The notes under the pieces are model-generated. The model searched no databases, was not told the DNA's origin, and saw nothing but the letters and a program-made list of their open reading frames with translations. A stretch of 64,000 bases of DNA, from assembly GCA_965116885.1 (NCBI GenBank), contig OZ220741.1, forward strand, positions 1,504,001-1,568,000, read 5' to 3'. This document shows positions 41,599 through 58,878 of this stretch, in pieces (position 1 is the stretch's first letter; each line of letters begins with the position of its first letter). The stretch comes from Candidatus Latescibacterota bacterium (lineage in GTDB: Bacteria; Latescibacterota; UBA2968). A program made the translations under genes and the position numbers.

Positions 41599-41665
41599 TC
41601 CTTTCAAATAGTCTGTAGTAGCTATGCCAGTTAATCTATCTACACTATCTCAGGAGGGAGATAAT

Positions 41666-44443
41666 ATGTATAAAAAGCCTTTTATCTGTGTACTCTTCAC
41701 TTTTCTCGCGCTGTCCGCCTCTCCAACTCTTGCCCAGCACTCGGTGGCGCGGCAGTGGAACGATGCCTTGTTGACGGCGATTAGCAATGATAAAGCCTTT
41801 CCCACAATCCAGGCTCGCAATCTTTTTCACACCAGTATCGCGTTGTACGATGCATGGGCGGTGTACGGCGATGGACCCGAGCAGACTTATTTGCTGGGTA
41901 AAACCGTCAATGGTTTTGCTGTTCCCTTTGCCGGTGCGCCCCGTCCCGATGATGTAGAGGAGGCCCGCCACGAGGCCATGAGCTATGCGGCTTATCGCCT
42001 CATAGAACACCGCTTTGCCTATTCGCCTGGTGCGAGGACGACGTTCAACCACATCGGCACGCTTATGGCACAACTGGGATACGATCCGAATTTCACCTCC
42101 ACAGACTATACCGATGGCAACCCTGCGGCTTTGGGCAACTATATCGCCCGGCAATTGATTCAGTTCGGCTTGCAGGACGGTGCCAATGAGCGAGACGCTT
42201 ACCGCATTCGCTACTACACGCCGCTCAATCCGTCTTTAGACCCCTTCCGGCCGGGACATAACGGTCTTATTGATCCCAACTTCTGGCAGCCTCTCAGCCT
42301 TGGAGAATACGACGCGTTTCTCACGCCAGAATGGGGTTCCATGATGTCTTTTGCCCTCGGCGAAGAGGACATGACGATGTACCAACGGGACGGCATTAAC
42401 TATCCAGTCTTCCACGATCCGGGACCGCCGCCCTGTATAGACTTCCAACAACAAAACAGTGAGCGCGCTGGACAGAGAATGGCGTCCGAAGAGTATCAAT
42501 GGGGCTTTGCTCTGGTCGCGCTGTGGTCGTCCCATCTCGACCCGGCTGATGGCGTCCTGTGGAATATTTCGCCCGGTGCTATCGGCAATGCGCCAGCATT
42601 GCCGCAGACCTTGAGCGAGTATAAGGCGTTCTACAACTTTTTCGACGGCGGTGATGCCAGCCAGGGGCATTCGGTTAATCCCCATACCGGGCAGCCGTAT
42701 GAAGACCAGTGGGTGCCGCGCGCCGACTATGCCCGGGTGCTGGCCGAATTTTGGGCCGATGGTCCAGATACCGAGACGCCGCCGGGCCACTGGTTCAGTA
42801 TCCTCAACTATGTCAGTGACCATCCGCTTTTTGAGAAGCGTTTTAAAGGACAGGGACCGATTCTCGACGATCTGGAATGGGATGTAAAGGCATACCTGTC
42901 CCTGGGGGGAGCCATGCACGATGCCGCGGTGAGTTCGTGGAGCATAAAGGCCTGGTACGACTATGTCCGTCCTATTTCGGCCGTTCGCTGGCTGGCTGAC
43001 CGCGGCCAGAGTAGCGATCCCGATCTACCGCGCTATGACCTGGCTGGTCTGCCGCTCGTGGATGGCTATATCGAGTTGGTCAAAGCCAGCGATCCCCTCG
43101 CTGGTACATACGGCGAACACATCGACAAAATCAAATTGAAGGCCTGGCGTGGTCCGGATTATGTCAGGGATACGGCGACTGATATCGCCGGCGTGGGCTG
43201 GATATTGGCCGAGAATTGGTGGCCATATCAGCGGTCCAATTTTGTGACGCCACCTTTTGCTGGCTATGTTTCGGGGCATTCGGTTTTCTCGAATGCTGGT
43301 GCCAGAGTTTTGACTTTGCTCACTGGGGATCCGTTTTTTCCAGGGGGGATGGGCGAGTTTCGCATCCAGCGCAATCGCTTTCTCGTTTTTGAAGAAGGTC
43401 CCAGTGTGGATGTGGTGCTGCAATGGGCTACGTATCAGGACGCTTCAGATCAGAGTTCTCTCTCGCGTCTTTGGGGCGGCATCCATCCGCCTGTAGATGA
43501 TATTCCCGCGCGTATAATTGGTGCCCATATTGGCGAGGATGCTTTTGAGCTATCTGAAGCGTATTTTGGTCAGCCGCTACCATGGGTACTTGATGCGCCT
43601 GTGGTGACGGGATCATCGGCGACCCGTGTGACAGTGAATTGGGAGGCTCCCACCACGACTGTCACGAGCTACGATTTGCGCTACCGACAGGGCGATACGC
43701 TGGTCTTTACGGACGGTCCGCAGGATGTGACCGGGACGAGTGCGACCATTACGGGGCTAAGGCCCAATACCGCATACGTAGTGCAGGTGCGGGGGAGCAA
43801 TGCGACAGGCGATGGCGATTGGTCGCCCGTGGGTGTTGGTAAGACGGCCACGCCGTCTGTTTCTCTGGATGTGGATGATGCTGAAGCGGACCAGTCCCTG
43901 TCCTTTCTCGATGTTTTTCCCGAGCGCGTTATCTCTATCCAGATTTTTGGTAGGTATTTTCAAGCGATAGATAATTTTTCACTGCGCTTTGAATACGATG
44001 CGACGCAGGTGGTTTATGAGGGATTTAGCAGGGGTAGTGTATCTGGCACCTCGGCTCTTTCCGGAAGAGATTTTGTGGCGATAGGGATGACGTTGTCAAA
44101 AGAAAAGCCAGTGGTTGATGGCAGTCTGATGGGCACGATTCGCTTTCGCACTACAGAGGTTTTTTCAGGCACAGATATACGCCTGATGCGGGTGAGCGTT
44201 GTGGGAGAGGAATACGCCGAGATGCTACCCGTGGATCTGAATATTGCCCTGGGCAAGGCTACTCCGCCTTCTCCGGACTTTGACGGCAATGGGATTGTTG
44301 GTATCTCTGACTTTTTGCTCTTTGCTGAGGTGTTTGGTGCCCGGGTGGGTCAAGCAGGGTATGAGGAAAAATACGACCTGGATGGCGATGGCGAGATTGG
44401 AATTTCCGATTTTCTGATCTTTGTGGAGAGCTTTGGCAAATGA
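41666..44443 (+). CDS. Secreted vanadium-dependent haloperoxidase-like protein + FN3 + cohesin-like + dockerin-like domains
   Basis: GGAGGGAG RBS, signal peptide; KAWYDYVRP, YVSGHS, SRLWGGIH vanadate-site motifs; DFDGNG/DLDGDG C-terminus. Confidence 0.88.
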   Translation: MYKKPFICVLFTFLALSASPTLAQHSVARQWNDALLTAISNDKAFPTIQARNLFHTSIALYDAWAVYGDGPEQTYLLGKTVNGFAVPFAGAPRPDDVEEARHEAMSYAAYRLIEHRFAYSPGARTTFNHIGTLMAQLGYDPNFTSTDYTDGNPAALGNYIARQLIQFGLQDGANERDAYRIRYYTPLNPSLDPFRPGHNGLIDPNFWQPLSLGEYDAFLTPEWGSMMSFALGEEDMTMYQRDGINYPVFHDPGPPPCIDFQQQNSERAGQRMASEEYQWGFALVALWSSHLDPADGVLWNISPGAIGNAPALPQTLSEYKAFYNFFDGGDASQGHSVNPHTGQPYEDQWVPRADYARVLAEFWADGPDTETPPGHWFSILNYVSDHPLFEKRFKGQGPILDDLEWDVKAYLSLGGAMHDAAVSSWSIKAWYDYVRPISAVRWLADRGQSSDPDLPRYDLAGLPLVDGYIELVKASDPLAGTYGEHIDKIKLKAWRGPDYVRDTATDIAGVGWILAENWWPYQRSNFVTPPFAGYVSGHSVFSNAGARVLTLLTGDPFFPGGMGEFRIQRNRFLVFEEGPSVDVVLQWATYQDASDQSSLSRLWGGIHPPVDDIPARIIGAHIGEDAFELSEAYFGQPLPWVLDAPVVTGSSATRVTVNWEAPTTTVTSYDLRYRQGDTLVFTDGPQDVTGTSATITGLRPNTAYVVQVRGSNATGDGDWSPVGVGKTATPSVSLDVDDAEADQSLSFLDVFPERVISIQIFGRYFQAIDNFSLRFEYDATQVVYEGFSRGSVSGTSALSGRDFVAIGMTLSKEKPVVDGSLMGTIRFRTTEVFSGTDIRLMRVSVVGEEYAEMLPVDLNIALGKATPPSPDFDGNGIVGISDFLLFAEVFGARVGQAGYEEKYDLDGDGEIGISDFLIFVESFGK

Positions 44444-45383: not shown

Positions 45384-46710
45384 ATGAAAAAGTTTTTGAA
45401 TATTTTGTTTGTCGCTGCATTGCTATGTACCACGGGTCTTAGTGTTCACGCGGAGGAGACGGTTAAGCTCGGCGTGTTGCACTCTCTGAGTGGGACCATG
45501 GCGATCTCTGAGGTTTCACTGCGCGATGTCGTGCTTATGGCTGTTGGGGAGATCAATGCCAGTGGCGGCGTGCTGGGGAAGAAGATTGAACCCGTGGTTG
45601 TCGATCCGGCATCGGACTGGGATCTGTTTGCCGAGAAAGCCAAAATGTTGCTTCGGGAGGAGAAGGTCGCCGTGACTTTTGGGTGCTGGACTTCGGTTTC
45701 GCGCAAGTCTGTTTTGCCGGTTTTTGAAGAGAGCAATGGTTTGCTTTTTTATCCGGTTCAATACGAAGGGGAGGAGTGTTCTCGAAATATTATTTATACC
45801 GGTGCTTTTTTATCCGGTTCAATACGAAGGGGAGGAGTGTTCTCGAAATATTATTTATACCGGTGCTACGCCCAACCAGCAACTGATTCCCGCTGCTGAA
45901 TATCTGATGAGTGAAGAAGGGGGCAGTTATAAGAAGTTTTATCTGCTGGGTACGGACTATGTTTTCCCGCGTACCGCGAATAAGATTCTTCGCGCTTTCT
46001 TGCTGCACAAGGGTGTGCCCGAAGAGAATATTATTGAAGAATATACGCCTTTTCACCATCAGGACTATCAGACCATAGTCCAGAAGATCAAGCGCTTTGC
46101 CGCCAATGGCGATGCCGCTGTTTTATCCACTATCAATGGCGATTCCAATGTTCCGTTCTACAAGGAATTTGCCAATCAGGGTCTCACATCGGCAATGTGC
46201 CCGATTATGGCGTTTTCTGTCGCTGAAGATGAGTTGCGTTCGATGGATACGGAGTTTCTCGTCGGTCATCTGGCTGCCTGGAACTATTTCCAATCTATTC
46301 CCGTTGCGGAAAATCGCGCGTTTGTGAAAAAGTTTAAAGATTATTGCGCGGCAAACGGGTTGCCCGGTGGTGCCAAGCGCGTTACCGATGATCCCATCGT
46401 GTGGTCTTATGTGGGTGTTTATCTCTGGAAAGCAGCAGTTGAAAAAGCCGGTTCTTTTGATGTTGATGCCGTGCGTCCCGCGCTTTACGGCCTCACATTT
46501 GACGGTCCGGGTGGTACGGTGATGATGGATCCGGTGAATCACCATTTGCACAAGCCCGTGCTGATTGGCGAGATCCGCAAGAACGGTCAATTCAAGATTG
46601 TATATGAGACCGATGGTCTCGTCGCTCCCGATCCCTGGGACGATATCACGAGTGCGGACAAAGATTGCGATCATGTCAAGCACATGGGAACCTATACACT
46701 CAAACAGTAG
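45384..46710 (+). pseudogene. urtA: Urea ABC transporter substrate-binding protein, frameshifted by a 61-bp duplication
   Basis: [44 protein letters not shown] split over two frames. Confidence 0.88.
45742..45867. repeat. Perfect 61-bp tandem duplication
   Basis: ATCCGGTTCAATACG.. at 45751 and 45812; identity spans 2x61+4 nt with TGCT at both ends. Confidence 0.97.
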
Positions 46711-46759: not shown

Positions 46760-47659
46760 ATGAAAAAATTGTTGCTGCTTCTCGCGATCCTGGCTTTTTC
46801 AGCCACATCGTCATTCGCTCAGATCAAAATTACAGATAACCTCACGGTTACGGGATTTTTCGATATGTCGTCAACGTATGATACGGCAACCAAATCCAAT
46901 AGTCTGTCTTTTGATCAGTTTGAAGTTGACTTTATTTACAACTATGGACGCGGGCTGTCAGCCCAGGCCGATATCAATAGCTTGAGTGGCGGGTCTGTTG
47001 ATCTCGAGCAGGCTTTTGTGACTTATAAAGCACCGAATGGATTCAGTATTACGGGCGGCAAATTTTTGAGTTGTTCGGGTTGGGAGACTGCAGAACCCAC
47101 AGGTTTGTATCAATATTCTTATTCTGCTACACTTGTTTATGGTGGTTATCAAAATGGTGCCGCTGTGGGGTTTGGCAATGGCAAAGTTGGTTTCTTTGGC
47201 TCTGTTGTTTCCAGCGTGTGGGATGGGTCCGATACCAGTTTTGATGATCTGGGTTTTGAAGCACAGATTGCTTTTACACCTGTTGAAGCATTTACAGCTA
47301 AGGTCGCGTACCTCTGGGAAGATATGGGTGGTTTTGAACAATCGCTTCTCAATGGTTGGGCAATGTATGCCACGGGCCCTGTGACACTGGCTGCGGAATA
47401 CAACTATCTGGCGAACTGGGGGGAAAGTGGAAATGGTGGCTATGGCTGGATTTTAATGGGTAATATGGCTTTGTCCGACAAGGTCGGTGCCACGGTGCGC
47501 TACAGTGGTCTGGATACAGATGCCGATGGAAAGTTTACGGAGATTACTTTTAGTCCCAGCTATACGATTACCGATAACTGGGGTGTGTTGGCCGAATTGC
47601 GCCGCGATATTGATTCAGAAGTAACCCTGTTTGCTTTTGAATCTATCTTTACGTTTTAA
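46760..47659 (+). CDS. Outer-membrane beta-barrel porin
   Basis: Signal peptide, amphipathic strands, LEQAFVTY, GKF, terminal IFTF. Confidence 0.85.
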   Translation: MKKLLLLLAILAFSATSSFAQIKITDNLTVTGFFDMSSTYDTATKSNSLSFDQFEVDFIYNYGRGLSAQADINSLSGGSVDLEQAFVTYKAPNGFSITGGKFLSCSGWETAEPTGLYQYSYSATLVYGGYQNGAAVGFGNGKVGFFGSVVSSVWDGSDTSFDDLGFEAQIAFTPVEAFTAKVAYLWEDMGGFEQSLLNGWAMYATGPVTLAAEYNYLANWGESGNGGYGWILMGNMALSDKVGATVRYSGLDTDADGKFTEITFSPSYTITDNWGVLAELRRDIDSEVTLFAFESIFTF

Positions 47660-47754: not shown

Positions 47755-49428
47755 ATGAAAATAAAACGCCACAATTTTTTGCGCTCTGTCTGCGCGCTGG
47801 CCCTCATTTTGGGCGTATCGCCCATCCAGGCACAGATGGATCACCCGTTGCAACTCGGGCGCATTGTCAGCAATGACCGCGATAGCATCACTACTGCGGT
47901 CAGAGTTATTTCCGATGCGAAAGATATCGCTTATTATGCCCTGATGGTTGCGCTTTTTAACGGTGAACTCTATCTAAAGAATAATGAGCTCGTCATTATC
48001 GGCGACATGCAAGAAGACGATTATGGCGATACCTTCGCCCCGCTCTACACCGCTTATCCCAAACGCCATCCCATTCTGAACGATGAGGGCAAGCCCCTTA
48101 TTGCGCCGCTGATTGATCTCGAAGAGATTGACAGCAATCGTCGCATCCGCGCGCTTATTCAACCTTATCTTACGCAGATGGAGATTTTTCATCCAGATCC
48201 CGGCAAGCGCCGCGTTGCTGTAGAAACGCTCGGCAATCGCGGTGATCTGGGCGCAGTCCCCATGCTGCGAGATGCTCTGGATAAAGAGGCGGATAGCAGT
48301 ATTCAAAGTCTGATCCGCGTTGCTCTGGGCAAGCTCGAACTCACGCATCCCGACGCCGAGATTCGTCTCAATGCGGCTAAAGCGCTGGGTGAACTCAATA
48401 ATACATTCGTTCTTTCTTTTTTGCGCGCGCGTGTTGAACCCGATGTCAGTGGCAATATTGCCGAGTCAGATCCCGCGGTTCGGAACGAGATACGCGATGC
48501 AATTCAGTGGCTGGAAACATTTAACCAGATCATGGTTGTGATCCAGACAGCTTTTGTCGGTCTCAGTCTGGGGTCTATTCTCATTCTGGTTGCGCTTGGT
48601 CTGGCGGTTATTTATGGGCAGATCGGTATTATCAATATGGCGCATGGCGAATTTATGATGGTTGGGGCTTATTTTACGTTTATTGTGCAGAATATTTGCA
48701 TGATTGTCCTGCCCGCTGCCTATATCGATCTGTTTTTTCTGCTGTCTTTACCCATTGCATTTCTCACGGCTGGTGGTATGGGGTTGCTTGTGGAGTCTCT
48801 GGTTATTCGCCGCCTTTACAATCGTCCTCTCGAGAGTTTGCTGGCTACGTGGGGGATTGGTCTTATTCTCGTACAGCTCGCGCGTACGATTTTTGGGGAT
48901 CTCACGGCTGTCAAGTTGCCCCAGATTCTCAGTGGCGGTTTCGAATTGGCGCCGCAGGTTATGCTGCCGTATAACCGGATCTTTATCATCTGTCTGACCG
49001 CTGTTATCCTGGTTGGTTTGGTCGCATTTTTCTTTAAGACCCGGTTTGGTCTTCGGTTGCGCGCGGTTACACAAAATCGTGAGATGAGTGCTTGTATGGG
49101 TATTCCCACCCGTCGCGTTGATGCGATTGCTTTTTTTCTTGGTACGGGTATCGCAGGGATCGCGGGCTGGGCTATGACGCTTATTGGCAATGTCGTTCCA
49201 AATATGGGGCAGACGTATATTGTCGATGCTTTTCTCGTGGTTGTCGTTGGCGGTGTTGGAAAAATTTTAGGGACGATTGTCGCGGGTCTGGGTATTGGCA
49301 TGTCCAATAAGGTTATTGAACCCTTTGCCGAAGCCGTTTATGCCAAGGTTCTCATTTTGGGCCTTATTATCCTCTTTTTACAGTTGCGTCCCACGGGCAT
49401 CTTTCCCGCGAAGGGGAGAGATGAATAG
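47755..49428 (+). CDS. urtB: Urea ABC permease with N-terminal periplasmic HEAT-like repeats
   Basis: GLSLGSIL, INMAHGEF, RPLESLLATWG, VVVGGVG. Confidence 0.93.
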   Translation: MKIKRHNFLRSVCALALILGVSPIQAQMDHPLQLGRIVSNDRDSITTAVRVISDAKDIAYYALMVALFNGELYLKNNELVIIGDMQEDDYGDTFAPLYTAYPKRHPILNDEGKPLIAPLIDLEEIDSNRRIRALIQPYLTQMEIFHPDPGKRRVAVETLGNRGDLGAVPMLRDALDKEADSSIQSLIRVALGKLELTHPDAEIRLNAAKALGELNNTFVLSFLRARVEPDVSGNIAESDPAVRNEIRDAIQWLETFNQIMVVIQTAFVGLSLGSILILVALGLAVIYGQIGIINMAHGEFMMVGAYFTFIVQNICMIVLPAAYIDLFFLLSLPIAFLTAGGMGLLVESLVIRRLYNRPLESLLATWGIGLILVQLARTIFGDLTAVKLPQILSGGFELAPQVMLPYNRIFIICLTAVILVGLVAFFFKTRFGLRLRAVTQNREMSACMGIPTRRVDAIAFFLGTGIAGIAGWAMTLIGNVVPNMGQTYIVDAFLVVVVGGVGKILGTIVAGLGIGMSNKVIEPFAEAVYAKVLILGLIILFLQLRPTGIFPAKGRDE

Positions 49429-49440
49429 ACGAGCTATCTT

Positions 49441-50535
49441 ATGACTTATTACCGTCCCATTATCGTATTCCTTCTCTTTGGCATTGCCGCGCCTGTGCTC
49501 AATGAGATGGGGTTGCTTTCAGATACGACGTTGAATCTTTGGGGTCGTTATTTTTGTTTTGCGATTGCCGCACTGGGGATTGATCTGATCTGGGGATATA
49601 CGGGTATTCTGTCGCTGTGTCAGGCGTTCTTTTTTTGTTTGGGCGGGTATGCGATTGGCATGCACATGTTGCTCAAGACGGGTACGCAAGGGGTTTATGG
49701 GAGTGCGTTACCCGATTTTATGGTGTGGAACCGCGTGGAGCAATTGCCGCTTTTTTGGGAGCCTTTTCACACTTTTACATTTGCGTTTATTCTGGCGCTT
49801 ATGATTCCGGCGATTATTGCGCTCATTTTTGGGTTCCTCGCTTTTCGCAGCCGGCTTCAGGGGGTTTATTTTGCCATTATTACGCAGGCTCTTGCCCTGG
49901 GGGTCTGGCTTATTTTTTTGCGGAATGAGACCATGCTCGGCGGTACCAATGGTCTGACGGATTTTAAGACGTTGCTCGGTTTTGAATTGGCGGATCCGGC
50001 GAGCAAACGCGGTCTTTATATCATTGCGTTTGTCACGCTTTTTGTTTCCTATTTTTTGTGTCGTTTTGTGGTGAAATCCAAGCTCGGGCGCGTGCTTATT
50101 GCGGTTCGAGATAGTGAGCATCGGTTGCGTTTTATCGGCTATCGCGTTATGAGCTACAAGGTATTTGTTTTTGTGATGGCCAGTATGCTCGGTGCTCTGG
50201 GCGGGTTGCTCTATGTGCCTCAGACCGGGATTATTACACCGGGGCGGATGGATGTGCAGGCTTCTATTGAGATGGTGATATGGGTTGCTGTTGGCGGGCG
50301 GGGGACTCTGATCGGTCCGATTATTGGCGCGGTGCTTGTGAATCTTCTCTACAGTTTTTTGACGGGCGCGTTCCCCGGTACATGGCTCTACTTTTTGGGC
50401 TTTCTTTTTATCGGTGTTGTGCTCTTTTTCCCCGATGGTCTTATTGGTCTGCGATCTAAGATAAAGATAAGGAGTTTGAAGCGATTTTTGCCCACACGCA
50501 TCCCAGCACCTGTACCTGCTGAAAGTCAGGATTAA
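49441..50535 (+). CDS. urtC: Urea ABC permease
   Basis: DLIWGYTGILSL, PDFMVW, GVYFAIITQAL, GGTNGLTDF. Confidence 0.95.
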   Translation: MTYYRPIIVFLLFGIAAPVLNEMGLLSDTTLNLWGRYFCFAIAALGIDLIWGYTGILSLCQAFFFCLGGYAIGMHMLLKTGTQGVYGSALPDFMVWNRVEQLPLFWEPFHTFTFAFILALMIPAIIALIFGFLAFRSRLQGVYFAIITQALALGVWLIFLRNETMLGGTNGLTDFKTLLGFELADPASKRGLYIIAFVTLFVSYFLCRFVVKSKLGRVLIAVRDSEHRLRFIGYRVMSYKVFVFVMASMLGALGGLLYVPQTGIITPGRMDVQASIEMVIWVAVGGRGTLIGPIIGAVLVNLLYSFLTGAFPGTWLYFLGFLFIGVVLFFPDGLIGLRSKIKIRSLKRFLPTRIPAPVPAESQD

Positions 50536-50536
50536 T

Positions 50537-51289
50537 ATGATTTTTGATCCGGTTCTGCTGACTGTTGAAAATTTGCGCGTGTCCTTTGATGGATTTGTCG
50601 CGCTCGATATAGACGAGTTTGTCCTGCACGACCGCGAATTGCGCGTTGTTATCGGTCCAAATGGTGCGGGTAAGACCACTTTTCTCGATGTTTTGTGCGG
50701 GAAGACCAGACCCGATCGCGGCAGTGCGCGTTTTGAAAAGTTCGATCTTACCCAGATGAGTGAAGATGCGATTGTCAAAGCGGGGGTTGGGCGGAAGTTT
50801 CAAACGCCGTCTGTTTTTACCTCTCTCACGGTGTACGAGAATCTGATGCTGGCGCTCAAGACTGACCGCACAGTTCTCTTTTCGCTTGTTTCGCGTCTGT
50901 CGGACAAGAATCGCGACCGCATCCAGGCTGTTGCAGAGCAGACGGGGCTGGCCGATCATCTGCATACGGTTGCCGATGCGCTTTCGCACGGGCAGAAACA
51001 GTGGCTGGAGATTGCGATGGTTATTTTGCAAGATCCAGAACTTTTTTTGATTGACGAACCCGCTGCTGGTATGACGGATGAAGAGACGGTTAAGACGGGG
51101 GAGCTTCTCGAACGCCTGACGATGAATCACGCGATTATTGTTATTGAACACGATATGGAATTTGTGAGACAGATCGCCCGCACGGTTACGGTTCTCCACG
51201 AGGGCAAGGTGCTTGTTGAAGGACCGATGGATCAGGTGCAAAATGATCCCCGGGTTATTGAGTGTTATTTGGGTAGTGCGCAGCATTGA
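50537..51289 (+). CDS. urtD: Urea ABC ATP-binding protein
   Basis: GPNGAGKTT, GRKFQTP, LSHGQKQWLEI, IEHDM. Confidence 0.95.
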   Translation: MIFDPVLLTVENLRVSFDGFVALDIDEFVLHDRELRVVIGPNGAGKTTFLDVLCGKTRPDRGSARFEKFDLTQMSEDAIVKAGVGRKFQTPSVFTSLTVYENLMLALKTDRTVLFSLVSRLSDKNRDRIQAVAEQTGLADHLHTVADALSHGQKQWLEIAMVILQDPELFLIDEPAAGMTDEETVKTGELLERLTMNHAIIVIEHDMEFVRQIARTVTVLHEGKVLVEGPMDQVQNDPRVIECYLGSAQH

Positions 51290-51327: not shown

Positions 51328-52047
51328 ATGACTACGATCACAGACACCGCTCTCACTGTTCGAGGTCTGGATGTTTATTACGGTGAGAGTCTCATTTTGC
51401 GCGATATTGATATGGATATTCCCAGAGGGGCGATTGTGGCGGTTATGGGGCGCAATGGGGTTGGGAAGACGACGCTTATCAAGACGATCATGGGTTTGTT
51501 GCAACCTCGGGGAGGCGATATTCTGTTGAATGGGGTGAATATAACGGGGCAGACACCGGATTTTCGGGCGCGTGCGGGTTTGAGTTATGTGCCGCAAGGG
51601 CGCGAGATTTTTCCGAAATTGACAGTGAACGAGAATTTGCAGATTGGTTTGGAAGCGCGGACAGATGGTCTTACTACTCTGCCGGAGGATCTGATTTACG
51701 ATCTTTTTCCCGTGTTGGCCGATATGCAAGATCGAATGGGTGGAAATCTCAGTGGCGGACAGCAACAGCAACTCGCCATTGCCCGTGCGCTTGTTGGCGA
51801 TCCGGATATTCTCATTCTGGACGAACCTACAGAAGGTATTCAGCCTTCGATTATTCTCGATATAGAGAATGTGTTGATCCATCTGAAGGACAAAGGGAAT
51901 CTCACCATTATTCTGGTGGAGCAGTACTTTGATTTTGCCCGGCAGATTGCCGATTATTTTTATTTGATGGATCGCGGAACGATTGCGTTGTGCGGTTCTG
52001 CGGATGAATTGTCGGATGAGAGTATTAAGCAGTATCTTACGTTTTGA
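51328..52047 (+). CDS. urtE: Urea ABC ATP-binding protein
   Basis: [38 protein letters not shown]. Confidence 0.95.
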
Positions 52048-52060
52048 TCAGGGATTTTTC

Positions 52061-52825
52061 ATGTATTTATCGCCCAAAGAAATTGACAAATTGATGCTTC
52101 ACAACGCGGGTTTTCTCGCGCAGAAGCGGTATGCTCGGGGCTTGCGTCTCAATTACCCGGAATCTATATCGCTTATCGCGGCACAGCTTCTCGAGTTTAT
52201 TCGCGATGGCGAGTCCGTTGCCACGCTTATGGATAAGGGCAAGCAGTTGCTGGGTACGGAAGATGTTTTGCCCGGTGTTCCGGATATGGTTCACGAGGTG
52301 CAGGTGGAGGGTACGTTTCCCGATGGGACGAAGCTCGTGACGGTTCATCATCCTATTTGCCGCGCAGAAGGCGATTCTGAACTCGCGTTGTACGGTTCGG
52401 GGCTTACGCGCGTTCGCTCGCCCTGGTCGCCGGATAATGCGGTTTCTGATACGCCGGGTGCCGGAGCTACGGCTGCTGATCCAATTGCGCTCAATGCGGA
52501 CCGGGAGACGATTTCTCTTTCTGTGACCAATACCGGAGATCGCCCGATACAGGTGGGTTCGCATTATACATTTTTTGAAGTTAATCCCGCGCTTTCGTTT
52601 GATCGCGAGAAAGCTTATGGCTTCCGTCTCGATATTCCATCTGGTACTGCCGTGCGTTTTGAACCGGGTGAGAGCAGGACGGTTGATCTCGTCGCTATTG
52701 CCGGGAACCGCACGGTCTATGGGGGGAATGGCCTTATTTCGGGGCAGATCGATGAGAATAAGGCAGAGGCTTTGCAACGGGCGGGAGATGGTGGATTTAA
52801 GGGGGTTCCAAATGTCTCAGATTGA
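52061..52825 (+). CDS. ureAB: Urease gamma-beta fusion subunit
   Basis: [19 protein letters not shown] (gamma) plus [20 protein letters not shown] (beta). Confidence 0.96.
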
Positions 52826-54515
52826 TCGAATTGCTTATGCCAGTATGTACGGTCCCACAACGGGAGACCGCGTTCAATTGGGCGATACCCATCTCGTCGT
52901 TGAGGTGGAAAATGATTACACGATTTACGGCGATGAATGCAAATTTGGCGGGGGTAAGGTGCTCCGCGACGGCATGGGTCAGGCTACGGGTGTGTCGCAG
53001 GATAGGGCGCTGGATCTCGTTATTACCAATACGCTTGTGGTTGATTCTACGGGGATATACAAAGCGGATGTTGGGATTAAAGACGGGCGTATCGCCGGTA
53101 TTGGCAAAGCGGGTAATCCCGATATTATGTCGGGTGTTGATCCCGATCTCATCGTGGGGGTTACGACCGAGGTTATTGCGGGTGAAGGTCATATGCTCAC
53201 GGCTGGTGCGCTCGATGTGCATGTCCATTTTATTTGTCCTCAGCAAGTTGAGGAGGCGATTGCTTCGGGTATTACGACTATGCTGGGTGGTGGTACGGGT
53301 CCGGCGACGGGGACCAATGCTACGACCTGCACGCCGGGGGCGCACCACATTCGCATGATGCTGGAGTCGAGTGATGCTTTTCCCCTCAATTTTGGATTTT
53401 TGGGCAAGGGCAATTCCTCGCTTCCGCAAGGGCTTGTTGAGCAGATTGAGGGTGGGGCTTGTGGTCTCAAGCTCCACGAGGACTGGGGTACGACGCCTGC
53501 GGCTATTGATGCCTGTCTTTCGGTTGCCGATGAATACGATGTTCAGGTGGCGATTCATACGGATACGCTCAATGAGTCGGGTTTTGTGGAGCAGAGTTGT
53601 GCAGCTTTTAAGGGGCGCACGATTCATACGTATCACACCGAGGGCGCGGGTGGGGGACACGCGCCGGATATTATGCGTCTTTGCGGCGAGGCGAATGTTT
53701 TGCCTTCATCTACGAATCCCACGCGGCCTTTTACGGCGAATACGATTGACGAGCATCTGGATATGCTTATGGTGTGTCATCATCTGGATAAAAATATACC
53801 CGAGGATGTGGCTTTTGCCGAGAGTCGCATTCGGCAGGAGACGATTGCGGCAGAAGATATTTTGCACGATATGGGGGCGCTGTCGATTATTGCATCGGAT
53901 AGTCAGGCGATGGGGCGCGTGGGGGAGGTTGTTTGTCGTACATGGCAGACTGCCCATAAGATGCGCGAGCAGCGGGGTGCACTGCGCGGCGATCGGGGGC
54001 ATGATAATGGGCGCGTGAAGCGGTATATTGCCAAATATACGATTAATCCCGCGACGGCTCATGGTTTGAGCGATTATATCGGTTCGGTTGAGGCGGGCAA
54101 GCTCGCGGATCTGGTGCTCTGGAAGCCATCTTTTTTTGGGGCAAAACCCGAGATGGTGATTAAGGGGGGTATAATCGCGTATTCGCAGATGGGCGATCCA
54201 AATGCTTCGATTCCCACGCCGCAACCCGTGTATCCGCGTCCTATGTTCGGCGCTTATGGCAATGCCGTGGGTTCTACGTCGCTGGCTTTTGTCTCCCGTG
54301 CTTCGCTGGATACTGTTGCGTCTTATGATCTGTCCAAAGGCGTTGTTGCGGTGTCCAATTGTCGGGATATTGGGAAGAAGGATATGAAGCTCAACGACTT
54401 TATTCCCGATATTCATATTGATCCGGAGACTTATAGCGTTACGGTCGATGGCGAGTTGCTCACCTGTGAGGCGGCAGAGAAACTGCCGCTGGCGCAGCTT
54501 TATAATTTGTTTTGA
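52812..54515 (+). CDS. ureC: Urease alpha subunit
   Basis: [44 protein letters not shown]. Confidence 0.98.
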
Positions 54516-54517
54516 TT

Positions 54518-55186
54518 ATGCTACTCGATCTTCTCACACTTGCCGATAGCAATTTCCCTACGGGTGGATACGCATTTTCCAATGGGCTGGAGGCCACCAA
54601 ACAAATGGGGTTGTTGCGTTCTTCCAATGATCTGGATGCGTATCTTCAAACGGTGATTCACGCGACGGCAAGGGGTGAGATTCCGTTTATTAATACGTGT
54701 TTTAAAGGTGATCCGGTTCCCGCTAATTTGACGGATATGCTGCTCACTTACGACGCGATGCTGACGGCACCGGCGATTGTCCGCGGCAGTGAGGTGCAGG
54801 GTTGCAATTTGTTGCGGCTGATGCGCGATTTGTATTTTTCCGATGCGATGACGCGGTTGTACAAAATCTTACTTTCGCAACCTGTGCCGGCTCATTATAC
54901 GATTGTTTTTGGTACGACGTTTCGGATTGCGGGTCTTAAACGCGGGCATACGTGTCGGATTTTTATGTATCAGTTTTTGCGCGATCAGATCAGTGCGGCT
55001 GTTCGCCTGGGGCAGATTGGTCCTCTCGAAGCCGCGCGGTTGCAAAAACGCCATCACAAGACGGCGATTAGAGCTATGACTTCTGTCGCGCAGGCAGATT
55101 ATACCTGTGCGACGCGCTGTGCGCCCCAATGGGATATTGCACAGGGTATGCACGAGTATCTGTATTCGCGGTTGTTTCAGAGTTAG
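54518..55186 (+). CDS. ureF: Urease accessory protein F
   Basis: [28 protein letters not shown]. Confidence 0.93.
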
Positions 55187-55196
55187 AGGATTTGCT

Positions 55197-55907
55197 ATGC
55201 ACGATCATAATCACGACCACGATCATTCTCACGAGCCTTTTGAATCTCCGGGGGACTTTGCTTTGCGCGAGTCGGTCCTTTGTGATCGCGATTTTTCACA
55301 GCGGGCGTTTACCGTGGGGGTTGGCGGTCCGGTGGGTACGGGGAAGACGGCGCTTGTTCGCGTGTTGTGCGAAGCCCTGCGCGATCGGTTTAGTCTCGGT
55401 GTGGTTACGAATGATATTTTTACGCGCGAGGATGCCGAATTTCTTTTGCGTCACAAGGCGCTTGAGGCCGATCGCATTATTGGGGTTGAGACGGGCGGAT
55501 GCCCGCATGCAGCTATTCGCGAGGATATTTCGCTCAATTTGAATGCGCTCGAGGATTTGATGATCCGCTTTGCGTGCGATATCGATTTGCTTTTTGTGGA
55601 GAGTGGCGGCGATAATCTGGCGGCGCATTTTAGCAAGGAGCTTGTCGATTACGCTATTTATGTGATTGATGTCTCTGCTGGGGACAAGATTCCCCGAAAA
55701 GGGGGTCCGGGGATTACGCAATCGGATTTGCTGGTTATTAATAAGACTGATCTGGCCGGTCTGGTTGGCGCAGATCTGGGGGTTATGGGGCGAGATGCAA
55801 AGAAGATGCGCGGCGATGGTCCCACGCTTTTTTCCTGTCTCAAACACGGGTCGGGGCTTGACGAGATTATTGAGTATGTTCTCCGAGCGCGCAGGTCTAT
55901 TTTGTGA
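55197..55907 (+). CDS. ureG: Urease accessory GTPase with His-rich N-terminus
   Basis: [27 protein letters not shown]. Confidence 0.97.
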
Positions 55908-55940
55908 ATTAAAAATTAAAAATTGAGAATTAACAATTGC
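55906..55940. repeat. Intergenic 7-bp tandem array
   Basis: GAATTAA AAATTAA AAATTGA GAATTAA CAATTGC. Confidence 0.8.
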
Positions 55941-56761
55941 TTCCTTCCCAAATTGAAGTGACCCGCAATGGCTCCCGTTCTGTTCTGACTGCCTGTCGCT
56001 CAGTCGCGCCTTTGAAGTTGCTCAATCCCGCCGCACAGGGCGATTATTGCGCTGTTGTGCTTTCCAGTTATGGAGGCGGTATGGTGGAGGGGGATGCGAC
56101 GACGCTGTGTGTGCGTTGTGGTGAGGGGGCAGCTCTTTATCTGGGGACTCAGGCGTTTACCAAAGTTTATAAGAGTCCCCGTGGTATTCCGTGTAAACAA
56201 ATAATTAACGGTGAGGTGGAAGCCGGGGGCCTTGCCGTTGTTTTGCCCGATCCCATTGTTCCATACTCGCGAAGTGTTTTTGAGCAGGCGCAGACGTGGC
56301 ATCTGGGGACTGACGCATGTCTGGTGCTCGCCGATGGTCATACGGCTGGACGCATGGCTTTTGGGGAGTGTTTTGGGTACACGAGTTACAGGTCTGATAT
56401 TACTGTGCATACGGCTGAACGCCCGATTCTGATGGAGCGCTATTATTCCGAGCCGGGGGTGTTGTCGCCGGTACATACGGGTGCTTTTGGGGCTTATGGT
56501 GTTGTTTTTAATATTTTTGTTGCGGGTAATTCCGCGCGTTTTAGCTGTTTGGTTGAAAGTCTTTCCCAATCGCTCACTCCTTTGTTGAAACCCTCGCAGG
56601 ATTCTTTGTTGCTTTCCTTTGCTTCCCCCAGGCCCGATCTTTTTGTGATACGATCCCTCGCGCAAAATGTCGAGTGTCTTCATCCTCTCTATAAAGCTCT
56701 CCGCAATGCAATCGCCCATCCCAATGTCCTCGGTGCAGATCCGCTGGCGCGAAAGTATTGA
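55937..56761 (+). CDS. ureD: Urease accessory protein D
   Basis: PLKL, YGGGMVEGD, TQAFTKVYK, LPDP, GR..GE; TTG start uncertain. Confidence 0.9.
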   Translation: MLPSQIEVTRNGSRSVLTACRSVAPLKLLNPAAQGDYCAVVLSSYGGGMVEGDATTLCVRCGEGAALYLGTQAFTKVYKSPRGIPCKQIINGEVEAGGLAVVLPDPIVPYSRSVFEQAQTWHLGTDACLVLADGHTAGRMAFGECFGYTSYRSDITVHTAERPILMERYYSEPGVLSPVHTGAFGAYGVVFNIFVAGNSARFSCLVESLSQSLTPLLKPSQDSLLLSFASPRPDLFVIRSLAQNVECLHPLYKALRNAIAHPNVLGADPLARKY

Positions 56762-56934: not shown

Positions 56935-58026
56935 ATGAAGATTACGAGCGTTGATTTGACCCCTGTTGCATCGAGGCGTGAGACTGGGCATTTGTCTCGT
57001 CACGTCATTATTCGCATGCACACAGATGAGGGATTGATCGGTCTGGGGGAGATGTCCGATGTGGGTGACTGGGGTGTTATGTACAATCTCGATGATGTCA
57101 AGGGTGCGTACGAGTCGTTGCTCGTGGGGAAGGATCCGCTGGCGTGGCGTACGATTACCATTGCAGCGAGGTCCCGGTTGCGAATGGGTGGGGCGATTCG
57201 AGCGGGGTTTGAGATCGGTCTTTTCGATTTGGTCGGCAAGATCCAGGGGCAGTCGGTTGCGGGTGTGTTTGGCGGGGCGCTGAGGGATAAGTGGCGCGTG
57301 TGTTATCCGATTTTCAGGAATTATCATAGGGAAGATGCCGAGGCGAATATCGCGCGTGTCAATCGCCGGATGAAAGAGGGACAGGATCTGTTTCGATTGT
57401 ATCACGGCGGAAATGTGGAGGCAGATGAGATTTTTTTGGATGGGGTGAAGTCGTCCTGGGGCGATCAGTTCGTGTTGAAGTCGCTCGATTTTAGCGGCGC
57501 GCACAAGTGGAAACGGGTGGTGCAGGCGCTGGATGTTTTGCTGAGATACTACAGGCCTTTTCATCTGGAATCCGTTTCTGACCGGCGAGATCTGGAGGGT
57601 CAATACGAGGTGCGAAAACGCATTGATCTGCCGATTAGTGAGCACGTCAGTTCACTGGATCAGGCCTATCAGTTTGCCCGGCACCGGTATGTCGATATTT
57701 TTAATATCAGTTTGTCGGGTGCGGGGGGGTTCACAAATGCGCTGCATATCGCGCAGGTTGCCGATGCGGCTGGTCTGTCGTGTCTGGTGGGTACGACGCA
57801 GGAGTTGTCCATTGGCGTGGCGGCTCAGGCGACGTTTGGTTCTGTGGTGGAGAATCTCGATTATCCGGGCGATCCAACAGGTGGGTTGCTGTACGAGAGC
57901 GATGTGGTGAAAGAGCGCATACAATACGAGAAGGGTTACGTGATTTTGCCAGAAGGTCCGGGGTTGGGTATGGAATTGGATGAGGAGAAGATCGCCGCGA
58001 TTTCAGAGCCTTTGAGTTCTGTGTAG
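56935..58026 (+). CDS. Mandelate racemase/muconate lactonizing enzyme family protein
   Basis: MKITSV, TDEGLIGLGE, FDLVGK, PEGPGLGMELDE. Confidence 0.88.
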   Translation: MKITSVDLTPVASRRETGHLSRHVIIRMHTDEGLIGLGEMSDVGDWGVMYNLDDVKGAYESLLVGKDPLAWRTITIAARSRLRMGGAIRAGFEIGLFDLVGKIQGQSVAGVFGGALRDKWRVCYPIFRNYHREDAEANIARVNRRMKEGQDLFRLYHGGNVEADEIFLDGVKSSWGDQFVLKSLDFSGAHKWKRVVQALDVLLRYYRPFHLESVSDRRDLEGQYEVRKRIDLPISEHVSSLDQAYQFARHRYVDIFNISLSGAGGFTNALHIAQVADAAGLSCLVGTTQELSIGVAAQATFGSVVENLDYPGDPTGGLLYESDVVKERIQYEKGYVILPEGPGLGMELDEEKIAAISEPLSSV

Positions 58027-58044
58027 CTGTGAGAGGAGAACACG

Positions 58045-58878
58045 ATGTCTCAAACAGCGGTCTGGTCCCCTGTTGAGGGCACAGTTGATGAGATTCTCGC
58101 GCAGGTTCCGCGGCCGTTCGATGCGATGATGGCGAGCGAGATTCCCGCTGTTATTGTGCGTCGCGCGTTTCCGTCGGATCACTGTGCGGCTCTTATTGAG
58201 CGGTTTTACGAGCGCGGTTTGCTCTACGATCCGCGCAAGGTGGGTGATGGCAGTCCCCGCCGGGTCGATATTGGTACGAGTCTGGGTCACCACGGGAATG
58301 ATCCCGATGCCTTTTACGAACATTCTCGCCAAACGCACGATCTTTTTTCATATTTGTTTGACGGGTACGATGATCCCGTGAAGACGCTGTACCATGCGCT
58401 TGATAGGATGCTTCCGGATAAGCGGGTTATGACGGCTCGGAGCGTTGATGGTCGTCTTTACGGTCCGGCTATTTTTAGGACTTATCACGAGGGCGTGGGG
58501 CATTACCCGCATTACGATTCCGTGTCCAAGCGGTCCAAACGCTACAATTTTACGGTTTCCCGGTTCAGACATCAGTTTGCGGGTGTGCTGTGTTTTCAGA
58601 ATAGTGAGGATCGAGGTGATAGCGGCGAGGGGGTCCTGTACAGGGCACCTATGTCGCCGGCGTTTCAACGTCCTCTCGAGGAGAGGCGATTTCGCGAGTA
58701 CGCGGAGGAGGAGGGGATTGCGCGCGTGCAGGTCAGTCTGGAACCGGGGGATCTCTACTTTTTTTATTCGGAGACGATTCACGAAGTTCCTTTTGTCGCA
58801 GGCTCTCAGCCCCGCGTTGTGCTGGCGTCGTTTATCGGTATGTCTGAAGACGATCCAGAGGTTTATTTGTGGTCATGA
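58045..58878 (+). CDS. Fe(II)/2OG-dependent oxygenase
   Basis: PHYD, LEPGDLYFF..IHEV..R facial-triad pattern. Confidence 0.82.
   Translation: MSQTAVWSPVEGTVDEILAQVPRPFDAMMASEIPAVIVRRAFPSDHCAALIERFYERGLLYDPRKVGDGSPRRVDIGTSLGHHGNDPDAFYEHSRQTHDLFSYLFDGYDDPVKTLYHALDRMLPDKRVMTARSVDGRLYGPAIFRTYHEGVGHYPHYDSVSKRSKRYNFTVSRFRHQFAGVLCFQNSEDRGDSGEGVLYRAPMSPAFQRPLEERRFREYAEEEGIARVQVSLEPGDLYFFYSETIHEVPFVAGSQPRVVLASFIGMSEDDPEVYLWS

Follow-up and report, generated by a model that had tools for sequence, protein, structure and literature searches.

Plant and fungal ureases are single polypeptide chains that are activated solely by the accessory proteins UreD, UreF, and UreG, the last of which is rich in histidine. 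Here we describe a related system from a bacterium. It lies in a stretch of 64,000 nucleotides from a Candidatus Latescibacterota bacterium (assembly GCA_965116885.1, contig OZ220741.1, positions 1,504,001 to 1,568,000 of the forward strand), hereafter called the window, whose numbering is used throughout. We consider it probable that this locus is an operon for urea uptake and for a two-chain urease whose maturation likely relies solely on UreD, UreF, and a His-tailed UreG, and that it comes from the bacterial family in which the single-chain ureases of eukaryotes likely arose.

Several parts of this arrangement have been described before. In eukaryotes, the UreG extension captures nickel and delivers it via UreF-UreD (PMC6077230, PMC10100864), and why UreE is missing from eukaryotes is stated to be unknown (PMC6077230). 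The same 2018 review describes a three-to-one transition to single-chain ureases for which the two-chain Helicobacter enzymes are not intermediates. Fusions of beta with gamma subunits are scattered (PMC3073912). According to a 2023 paper, no His-rich HXH extension is known for UreG of bacteria, and a supplementary tree is reported there to have bacterial, plant, and fungal clades apart from one another (PMC10100864). Earlier, Table 1 of Haas et al. (2009; PMC2770081) listed bacteria that have no ureE and carry a His stretch in UreG, among them Cytophaga hutchinsonii, Anaeromyxobacter Fw109-5, Sorangium cellulosum, mycobacteria, and streptomycetes. Like the window, these have a His-rich UreG extension. 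That paper groups these taxa with Actinobacteria and regards the tail as compensation for the missing UreE; its accessible text draws no link to eukaryotes through subunit structure or phylogeny.

The His stretch printed there for Cytophaga matches the tail of a Cytophagales locus in our set (L111), and therefore cultured members of the family described below were already in that table. UreE-less bacteria with a His-tailed UreG are thus already known, and this combination, noted in an initial reading of the window made from its letters alone (the sequence-only reading), is not special to the locus. A full-text search that reached few subscription journals, and whose scope took in neither the 2013 phylogeny behind the three-to-one claim nor the figures and additional files of PMC2770081, found no paper that places eukaryotic ureases inside this family.

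A Two-Chain Urease with Eukaryote-Like Features

The genes ureAB-C-F-G-D follow one another on the plus strand, which also carries the urt and porin genes described below. The first, ureAB (52061..52825), encodes a fused gamma-beta subunit of 254 amino acids that scores 336 against the bifunctional gamma/beta model NF009671 (PRK13192; cut-off 243). Its Pfam gamma domain spans residues 1-99 and its beta domain residues 132-229. The protein begins with [23 protein letters not shown], and the linker between the domains has [15 protein letters not shown]. This linker (approximately residues 100-131; 52358..52453) is long and of the eukaryotic type; its alignment to jack bean urease needs just one gap, of one residue. 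The catalytic alpha subunit of 567 amino acids is encoded by ureC (52812..54515; TIGR01792, 957, cut-off 680), and is followed by ureF (54518..55186; PF01730, 71.8, cut-off 23.3). The GTPase gene ureG (55197..55907; TIGR00101, 294, cut-off 204) specifies an N-terminal His tail (residues 1-12, within [31 protein letters not shown]) and a conserved arm (approximately residues 17-41) before the P-loop; a His-rich extension with HXH before this arm is also found in eukaryotic UreG. Finally, ureD (55937..56761; PF01774, 136.9, cut-off 27) has a TTG start and encodes a protein with YGGG and PDP. Pfam and NCBIfam searches bear out each gene's identity. The genes lie where the sequence-only reading had placed them, the UreAB, UreG, and UreD features that it quoted are all present, and the two motifs that it gave for eukaryotes do occur there, in jack bean urease and plant UreG.

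In ureases, four histidines, a carbamylated lysine, and an aspartate serve as nickel ligands, and a Cys-His pair belongs to the flap. UreC retains H137, H139, K220, H249, H275, and D363, together with flap residues C322 and H323 (motif positions). In a domain test for nickel urease (EC 3.5.1.5), the gamma, beta, and alpha parts all score above the family cut-offs. Judged by its residues, the locus encodes a urease with all nickel ligands kept, and activity is predicted.

The sequence-only reading also saw in the overlap of ureAB and ureC a system one fusion short of the single chain. The overlap of 14 nucleotides is real, but it is a trait of the genus with no sign of imminent fusion. The ureAB stop codon lies at 52823-52825 and ureC starts separately. 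A spacing of -14 nucleotides is shared by 12 loci from the genus of the window, whereas elsewhere in the family the spacing varies from -8 to 2207 nucleotides, and only 15/38 and 6/23 family loci overlap at all. Because the 14-nucleotide overlap is not conserved beyond the genus, we reject it as a sign of near-fusion. In addition, a product of reading through from ureAB into ureC would have a junction of at most 46 amino acids, shorter than 27 of 28 eukaryotic junctions (46-65 amino acids). In clusters of the Hymenobacter/Pontibacter type (L105-L110, L135), 450-2200 nucleotides including a small gene separate ureAB from ureC, and such ureD genes as were seen lie on the opposite strand in convergent orientation.

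The best PDB match of UreAB is jack bean urease, with 259.6 bits in one stretch across the linker, compared with 229 in two stretches for Helicobacter pylori. Similarly, UreC matches plant ureases best, at 877 bits versus 816 for H. pylori. The eukaryotic single-chain enzymes (jack bean 3LA4, pigeon pea 4G7E) belong to systems that resemble the window in the long linker, the His tail and arm of UreG, and the lack of UreE, and differ in that the window keeps beta and alpha on separate genes within an operon that includes a bacterial urt transporter. Helicobacter UreA/UreB shares the division of chains into gamma-beta and alpha. However, its linker is short, the window proteins fall below both Helicobacter equivalog cut-offs (NF010592, 265 versus 353; NF010591, 903 versus 1083), and the Helicobacter enzyme needs UreE and HypA (PMC7055735), neither of which was found in the genome of the window. 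Passing NF009671 does not define the family, because short-linker fusions that possess UreE and fall elsewhere in the trees pass it too.

Trees Unite the Bacterial Family with Eukaryotic Ureases

Phylogenetic trees were built from domain cores only (770 columns), excluding the linker. Rows were picked for diversity and completeness from a larger pool, and frameshifted or partial loci were left out. In posterior mean site frequency (PMSF) trees under LG+C20 with 61 and 70 rows, the node joining the two-chain family with eukaryotes has support of 100, and a 44-row LG+C20 tree gives 100/100. Gamma-beta alone and alpha alone, in fast LG+G4 searches, recover the same node with values of 99.5 and 99.2 in the Shimodaira-Hasegawa-like approximate likelihood ratio test (SH-aLRT). 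The family and eukaryotes are also joined in a FastTree analysis of 104 rows. A tree of the UreG core (74 rows, tail excluded) agrees, with 100/99 for family plus eukaryotes.

This result bears on whether the resemblance could be convergent, such that an ordinary bacterial or Helicobacter/Deinococcus-type fusion acquired a His tail and lost ureE on its own, as in Actinobacteria. Gamma-beta fusions do occur elsewhere (L136, L146, L188), as do UreE-less bacteria with His-tailed UreG (L075, L149, L150, L152; PMC2770081), and the raw alpha identity to eukaryotes, 66-72%, overlaps that to some ordinary bacteria (up to 71.8%). Yet trees built without linker and without tail still unite the family with eukaryotes at 100, and the Actinobacterial tails have no arm motif. 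Furthermore, when the window subclade was held together with short-linker fusions (Deinococcus, Methylobacterium, and the Helicobacter-like L188), the approximately unbiased (AU) test rejected the constraint with p values of 3e-44 and 2e-56, both below 1e-40. L188, our proxy for Helicobacter, scores best on a Helicobacter model, yet below its cut-off, and branches with Clostridium rather than with the family. The urease and UreG trees thus refute convergence, to which we give almost no credence. The eukaryotic connection of the locus, as read from its sequences, is real, and on this point the sequence-only reading, which had set the system apart from Helicobacter-like and ordinary bacterial ureases, was correct.

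Characters Shared by the Family and Eukaryotes

Two further features set the same group apart. The motif-to-motif span across the gamma-beta junction is 67 amino acids in the window, 65-68 in window-type loci (52 loci), 65-96 in a second bacterial type described below (34 loci), and 66-77 in eukaryotes (25 proteins), versus 42-44 in other bacterial fusions (6). A seventh row of the last class, L190 (74 amino acids), is a fragmented single-chain gene of eukaryotic appearance. The arm motif of UreG, which precedes the P-loop and reads PG-F/Y ... R-x-F/W-xx-R-x-F-T, is present in 51/53 and 7/8 family loci and in 41/44 eukaryotic proteins (from plants, fungi, oomycetes, a mollusc, and an ostracod), versus 0/83 other loci; the pattern was drawn up after the sequences had been viewed. 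Among the sequences sampled, the long linker and the UreG arm are therefore common to the family and eukaryotes and absent from other bacteria. The His content of the UreG tail has a median of 6-7.5 in the family, compared with 0 in other loci.

UreD and UreF show a gradient. Eukaryotic copies were taken from Closterium alone, and its UreD segment gives median scores of 110 bits with the second type, 70 with the window type, and 30 with others; for the UreF segment the medians are 46, 36, and 9. Among the "others" the top score belongs to L006, which is the locus of the window itself. Two Closterium gene models (P0162, P0242) place urease, UreF, and UreD in a single protein of 1589-1629 amino acids, which may be a real fusion or merged neighbouring genes. 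If the latter, that alga would have a urease gene cluster.

Two Bacterial Subtypes and the Likely Origin of the Eukaryotic System

The family comprises members from Latescibacterota, Cytophagales, Acidobacteriota, Planctomycetota, and soil contigs, and it falls into two types. Loci of the window type carry QKRYARG and a linker with GSGL. Their gene order is mostly AB-C-F-G-D, except that ureD comes first in the delta-group and Terriglobia members; the corresponding subclade includes Latescibacterota, Cytophagales, and some delta-group genomes. The second type has GSFL and QKRLARG, as eukaryotes do, the order D-AB-C-F-G, and no ureE. It was found by an alignment-guided scan of metagenomes, from which the best 80 of 596 candidates were taken. 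One such locus (L118) lies in an Acidobacteriota genome, the phylum of the Terriglobia bin, and another (L164) in a cluster named Planctomycetota.

In every family locus examined, beta and alpha are on separate genes. No single-chain urease was found in bacteria by a search that was not exhaustive; the unnamed full-length matches that we tested fell among eukaryotes or were long-branched. The one single-chain metagenome locus examined, L218, was likewise rejected as bacterial, given that its neighbours look fungal and it groups with fungi. Outside these cases, a metagenome locus with a separate gamma gene and UreE has beta and alpha in one frame of 679 amino acids (L227:2199-4238), which could be an independent beta-alpha fusion or a sequence error.

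How do these branches relate to the eukaryotic enzymes? In the 61- and 70-row trees, the window subclade branches first (97 and 98), followed by second-type bacteria and then by monophyletic eukaryotes (SH-aLRT 94 and 92). In the 44-row tree the window subclade has support of 100/98, and the second type joins eukaryotes at 99/96; this grouping has values of 91.9 and 92.1 for gamma-beta alone and alpha alone. In the UreG core tree the window subclade has 95/93, and a group that joins four second-type loci to eukaryotes has 98/92. The main AU tests compared 14 trees of 44 rows under LG and PMSF. The searches under constraint were brief, so that a rejection near 0.02-0.03 should be taken as soft. 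A constraint for eukaryote monophyly has p values of 0.73 and 0.61 and is the best tree under PMSF.

The window subclade most likely diverged earlier than the one that is closest to eukaryotes, and we lean toward the view that the eukaryotic system was inherited whole from this family. If so, the long-linker two-chain enzyme would be a true intermediate in a three-to-two-to-one series, the UreG arm would be the ancestral substitute for UreE, and eukaryotes would lack UreE since their donor had already replaced it with a tailed UreG. As the trees suggest, a three-chain urease probably underwent, in bacteria, a long-linker gamma-beta fusion, with ureE being lost and the UreG arm acquired. The whole kit would then have been transferred to early eukaryotes, where beta and alpha fused.

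A number of observations count against this scenario. In the FastTree analysis, the family bacteria are nested among eukaryotes, with weak support. The 44-row tree leaves eukaryotes as two groups in a polytomy, and in the UreG tree four soil loci sit among the eukaryotic proteins. A single clade of all family bacteria is not rejected (p 0.066 and 0.077), nor is the window subclade as direct sister of eukaryotes in three of five AU comparisons (0.135 and 0.099 for one tree; 0.18 in a two-tree test). In addition, the trees include no true Helicobacter sequences and no named cyanobacterial or myxobacterial ones. The branching order given above for the clade of family plus eukaryotes is provisional.

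Three other histories can be weighed against the same data. The 44-row tree would even allow for uptake and fusion to have taken place twice, once in fungi with red algae and once in other eukaryotes, which we regard as unlikely. The unrejected constraints just listed could also mean that eukaryotic ureases have the whole two-chain family, or the window subclade, as their direct sister, with no sampled bacterial branch closer. This is the "sister lineage" of the sequence-only reading, whose link to eukaryotes stands but whose placement, judged by the best trees, is probably one step too close. No unconstrained IQ-TREE tree has this topology, and in one constrained version it is rejected (p 0.008 and 0.027). 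The second subclade, rather than the window's, has both the eukaryotic sequence motifs and the higher Closterium UreD and UreF scores. A direct sister relationship is accordingly quite unlikely in our judgment.

The transfer might also have run in the other direction, with bacteria acquiring a eukaryotic single-chain system and splitting beta from alpha, so that the family would be derived rather than ancestral. The nesting in FastTree, the four bacterial UreG proteins among eukaryotic ones, and the patchy distribution of the family across phyla are in keeping with this history, and eukaryote monophyly is starred in no concatenated tree. However, bacteria part from the rest at the first split of the clade in all IQ-TREE mixture-model trees. 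Nesting of the family with fungi has AU p values of 0.028 and 0.018 (LG and PMSF), with fungi plus a red alga 0.017 and 0.079, and with green plants 0.007 and 0.001. Moreover, scattered eukaryotic genes would have to be reassembled into compact operons with bacterial urt transporters. We judge the reverse direction very unlikely. In the history that we favour, in which the kit passed from bacteria to eukaryotes, the window is one member of a large and widespread UreE-free two-chain family, and the branch closest to eukaryotes is probably a different one.

Distribution and Host

Relatives at 92-95% identity come from Ca. Latescibacterota, and the named DNA runs that contain at least half of the locus's words are sponge metagenomes. 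The host bacterium is thus likely sponge-associated. UreAB is present in 18/20 other genomes of the genus and in 0/16 of the neighbouring family. Across the phylum, UreG is found in 49/151 genomes, and every match starts at query positions 1-8, so that the extension is included. Carriers of this gamma-beta protein also include Pontibacter, Hymenobacter, Rufibacter, Flammeovirga, Wenyingzhuangia, a Verrucomicrobiota bin, Terriglobia, and a delta-group bin. In samples of genomes, the two-chain family is present in 13/151 genomes of the order Cytophagales, to which Flammeovirga belongs, in 1/201 Acidobacteriota genomes (a second match there is three-chain), and in 2/151 delta-group genomes (four further matches are three-chain). 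This patchy distribution across phyla shows that the family moves horizontally. GC content gave no hint of recent transfer. Two genomes (G015 and G042) each hold two copies of the family urease cluster. In one Latescibacterota family (f3; L120-L130), no ureD was detected within approximately 3 kilobases on either side of ureAB-C-F-G.

Proposed Nickel Delivery without UreE

The host genome is a single contig and 98.4% complete. As the sequence-only reading had noted, the cluster has no ureE, and none was found elsewhere in the genome: PF02814 has a best E value of 0.99, PF05194 gives no match, and a profile made from 56 UreE sequences has a best E value of 3.6. With UreE from those outgroup loci for which scores were listed, this profile reaches 47-176 bits. 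Similarly, UreE_C is found in 0/28 family genomes compared with 5/5 three-chain controls; because the 28 genomes are related, they do not represent 28 independent cases. Genes for HypA, HypB, NicO, and HupE/UreJ were not found in the genome, and the SlyD-like FKBP that it encodes is without a His tail. Two genes of the CobW/COG0523 family are present elsewhere in the genome.

By analogy with work on plants, fungi, and Helicobacter, UreG may gather nickel by means of its His tail and conserved arm, thereby replacing UreE, and the metal would then be loaded via UreF-UreD onto apo-urease upon GTP hydrolysis. A complication is that many members from Bacteroidota retain the arm with a tail of just 1-3 His; such His-poor tails occur in Flavobacteriaceae and Flammeovirga members in which ureE is missing as well. 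Given these tails, the His run may not be what replaces UreE, a point that tells against the scheme just outlined. As far as the sequences reveal, the arm rather than the His run is the constant UreG feature of the family.

A rival mechanism, compatible with the same trees and favoured by these His-poor tails, is that the tail is a dispensable nickel store and that UreE is made unnecessary by the arm or by a different metal chaperone, such as one of the two COG0523 proteins. The His tail of Klebsiella aerogenes UreE is dispensable (PMC7055735). Furthermore, the arm is predicted to be more ordered than the tail: in an AlphaFold2 model of UreG, the predicted local distance difference test score is 48-54 (low) for residues 1-20 and 75-90 for residues 21-40. 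Set against this possibility are the high His content of family tails relative to other loci, and the statement that nickel transfer by Cryptococcus and Arabidopsis UreG was shown to require the N-terminal extension (PMC10100864). We hold a dispensable tail to be somewhat doubtful but well worth considering, and continue to prefer nickel capture by the tail together with the arm.

The timing of ureE loss is a related matter. The Actinobacterial ureABC-F-G-D operons (Gordonia L149, Streptomyces L150, Acidimicrobiia L075) resemble the window in lacking ureE in the cluster, in the His-containing N-terminus of UreG, and in downstream gene order. They differ in having three chains, no UreG arm motif, and a urease outside the family. 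Their UreG proteins adjoin the family-plus-eukaryote clade (92/84, unstarred), and their ureases do not. From this position, together with the His-containing N-terminus and the lack of ureE in the cluster, the loss of ureE may predate the family.

Urea Uptake Genes and Neighbours

Directly upstream of ureAB, as identified by Pfam and NCBIfam, lie urtABCDE and a putative porin. The urtA gene for the binding protein of the urea ABC transporter (45384..46710; TIGR03407, under the cut-off with 397 bits for the larger piece) has a reading frame broken by a perfect tandem duplication of 61 nucleotides (45742-45863). Since urtA is a single frame in 9/9 relatives that have it, and the extra copy is missing from three other runs, the duplication is either a strain lesion or an assembly artefact. 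Next comes a gene for a putative outer-membrane beta-barrel porin of the BBP2 family (46760..47659; PF07642, 36 bits, cut-off 26.2), located between urtA and urtB and a candidate for an outer-membrane urea channel. The permease genes are urtB (47755..49428; TIGR03409, 385.8 bits, cut-off 250.3), whose product has an N-terminal HEAT-repeat extension (HEAT_2), and urtC (49441..50535; TIGR03408, 432.9, cut-off 296.2); the ATPases are encoded by urtD (50537..51289; TIGR03411, 357.1, cut-off 304.1) and urtE (51328..52047; TIGR03410, 323.1, cut-off 285.8). Urea would thus enter the cell through the porin and UrtABCDE, with the proviso that urtA is frameshifted in this assembly.

Scans for promoters and terminators were at chance (18 versus 14.6 +/- 3.9 and 25 versus 18.2 +/- 4.3, respectively). 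Contigs from two RNA libraries overlap parts of urtA, the porin gene, and ureC, which is not proof of transcription, and a raw-read run yielded three reads. Farther upstream, positions 41624-44443 encode a secreted protein of 939 amino acids with a vanadium haloperoxidase-like region (DUF6851, weak VCPO) and fibronectin III domains. On the 3' side of ureD (56935-58878) are an enolase-superfamily gene and a gene of the WelO5-like Fe/2-oxoglutarate halogenase family.

Implications

The bacterial family represented by the window offers a candidate two-chain intermediate, different from the Helicobacter enzymes, for the path toward single-chain ureases. It likewise gives a simple answer to the question of UreE, which is that eukaryotes would have inherited a UreE-less state. 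Finally, its members Hymenobacter, Pontibacter, Flammeovirga, and Cytophaga are culturable models for nickel delivery that is free of UreE.

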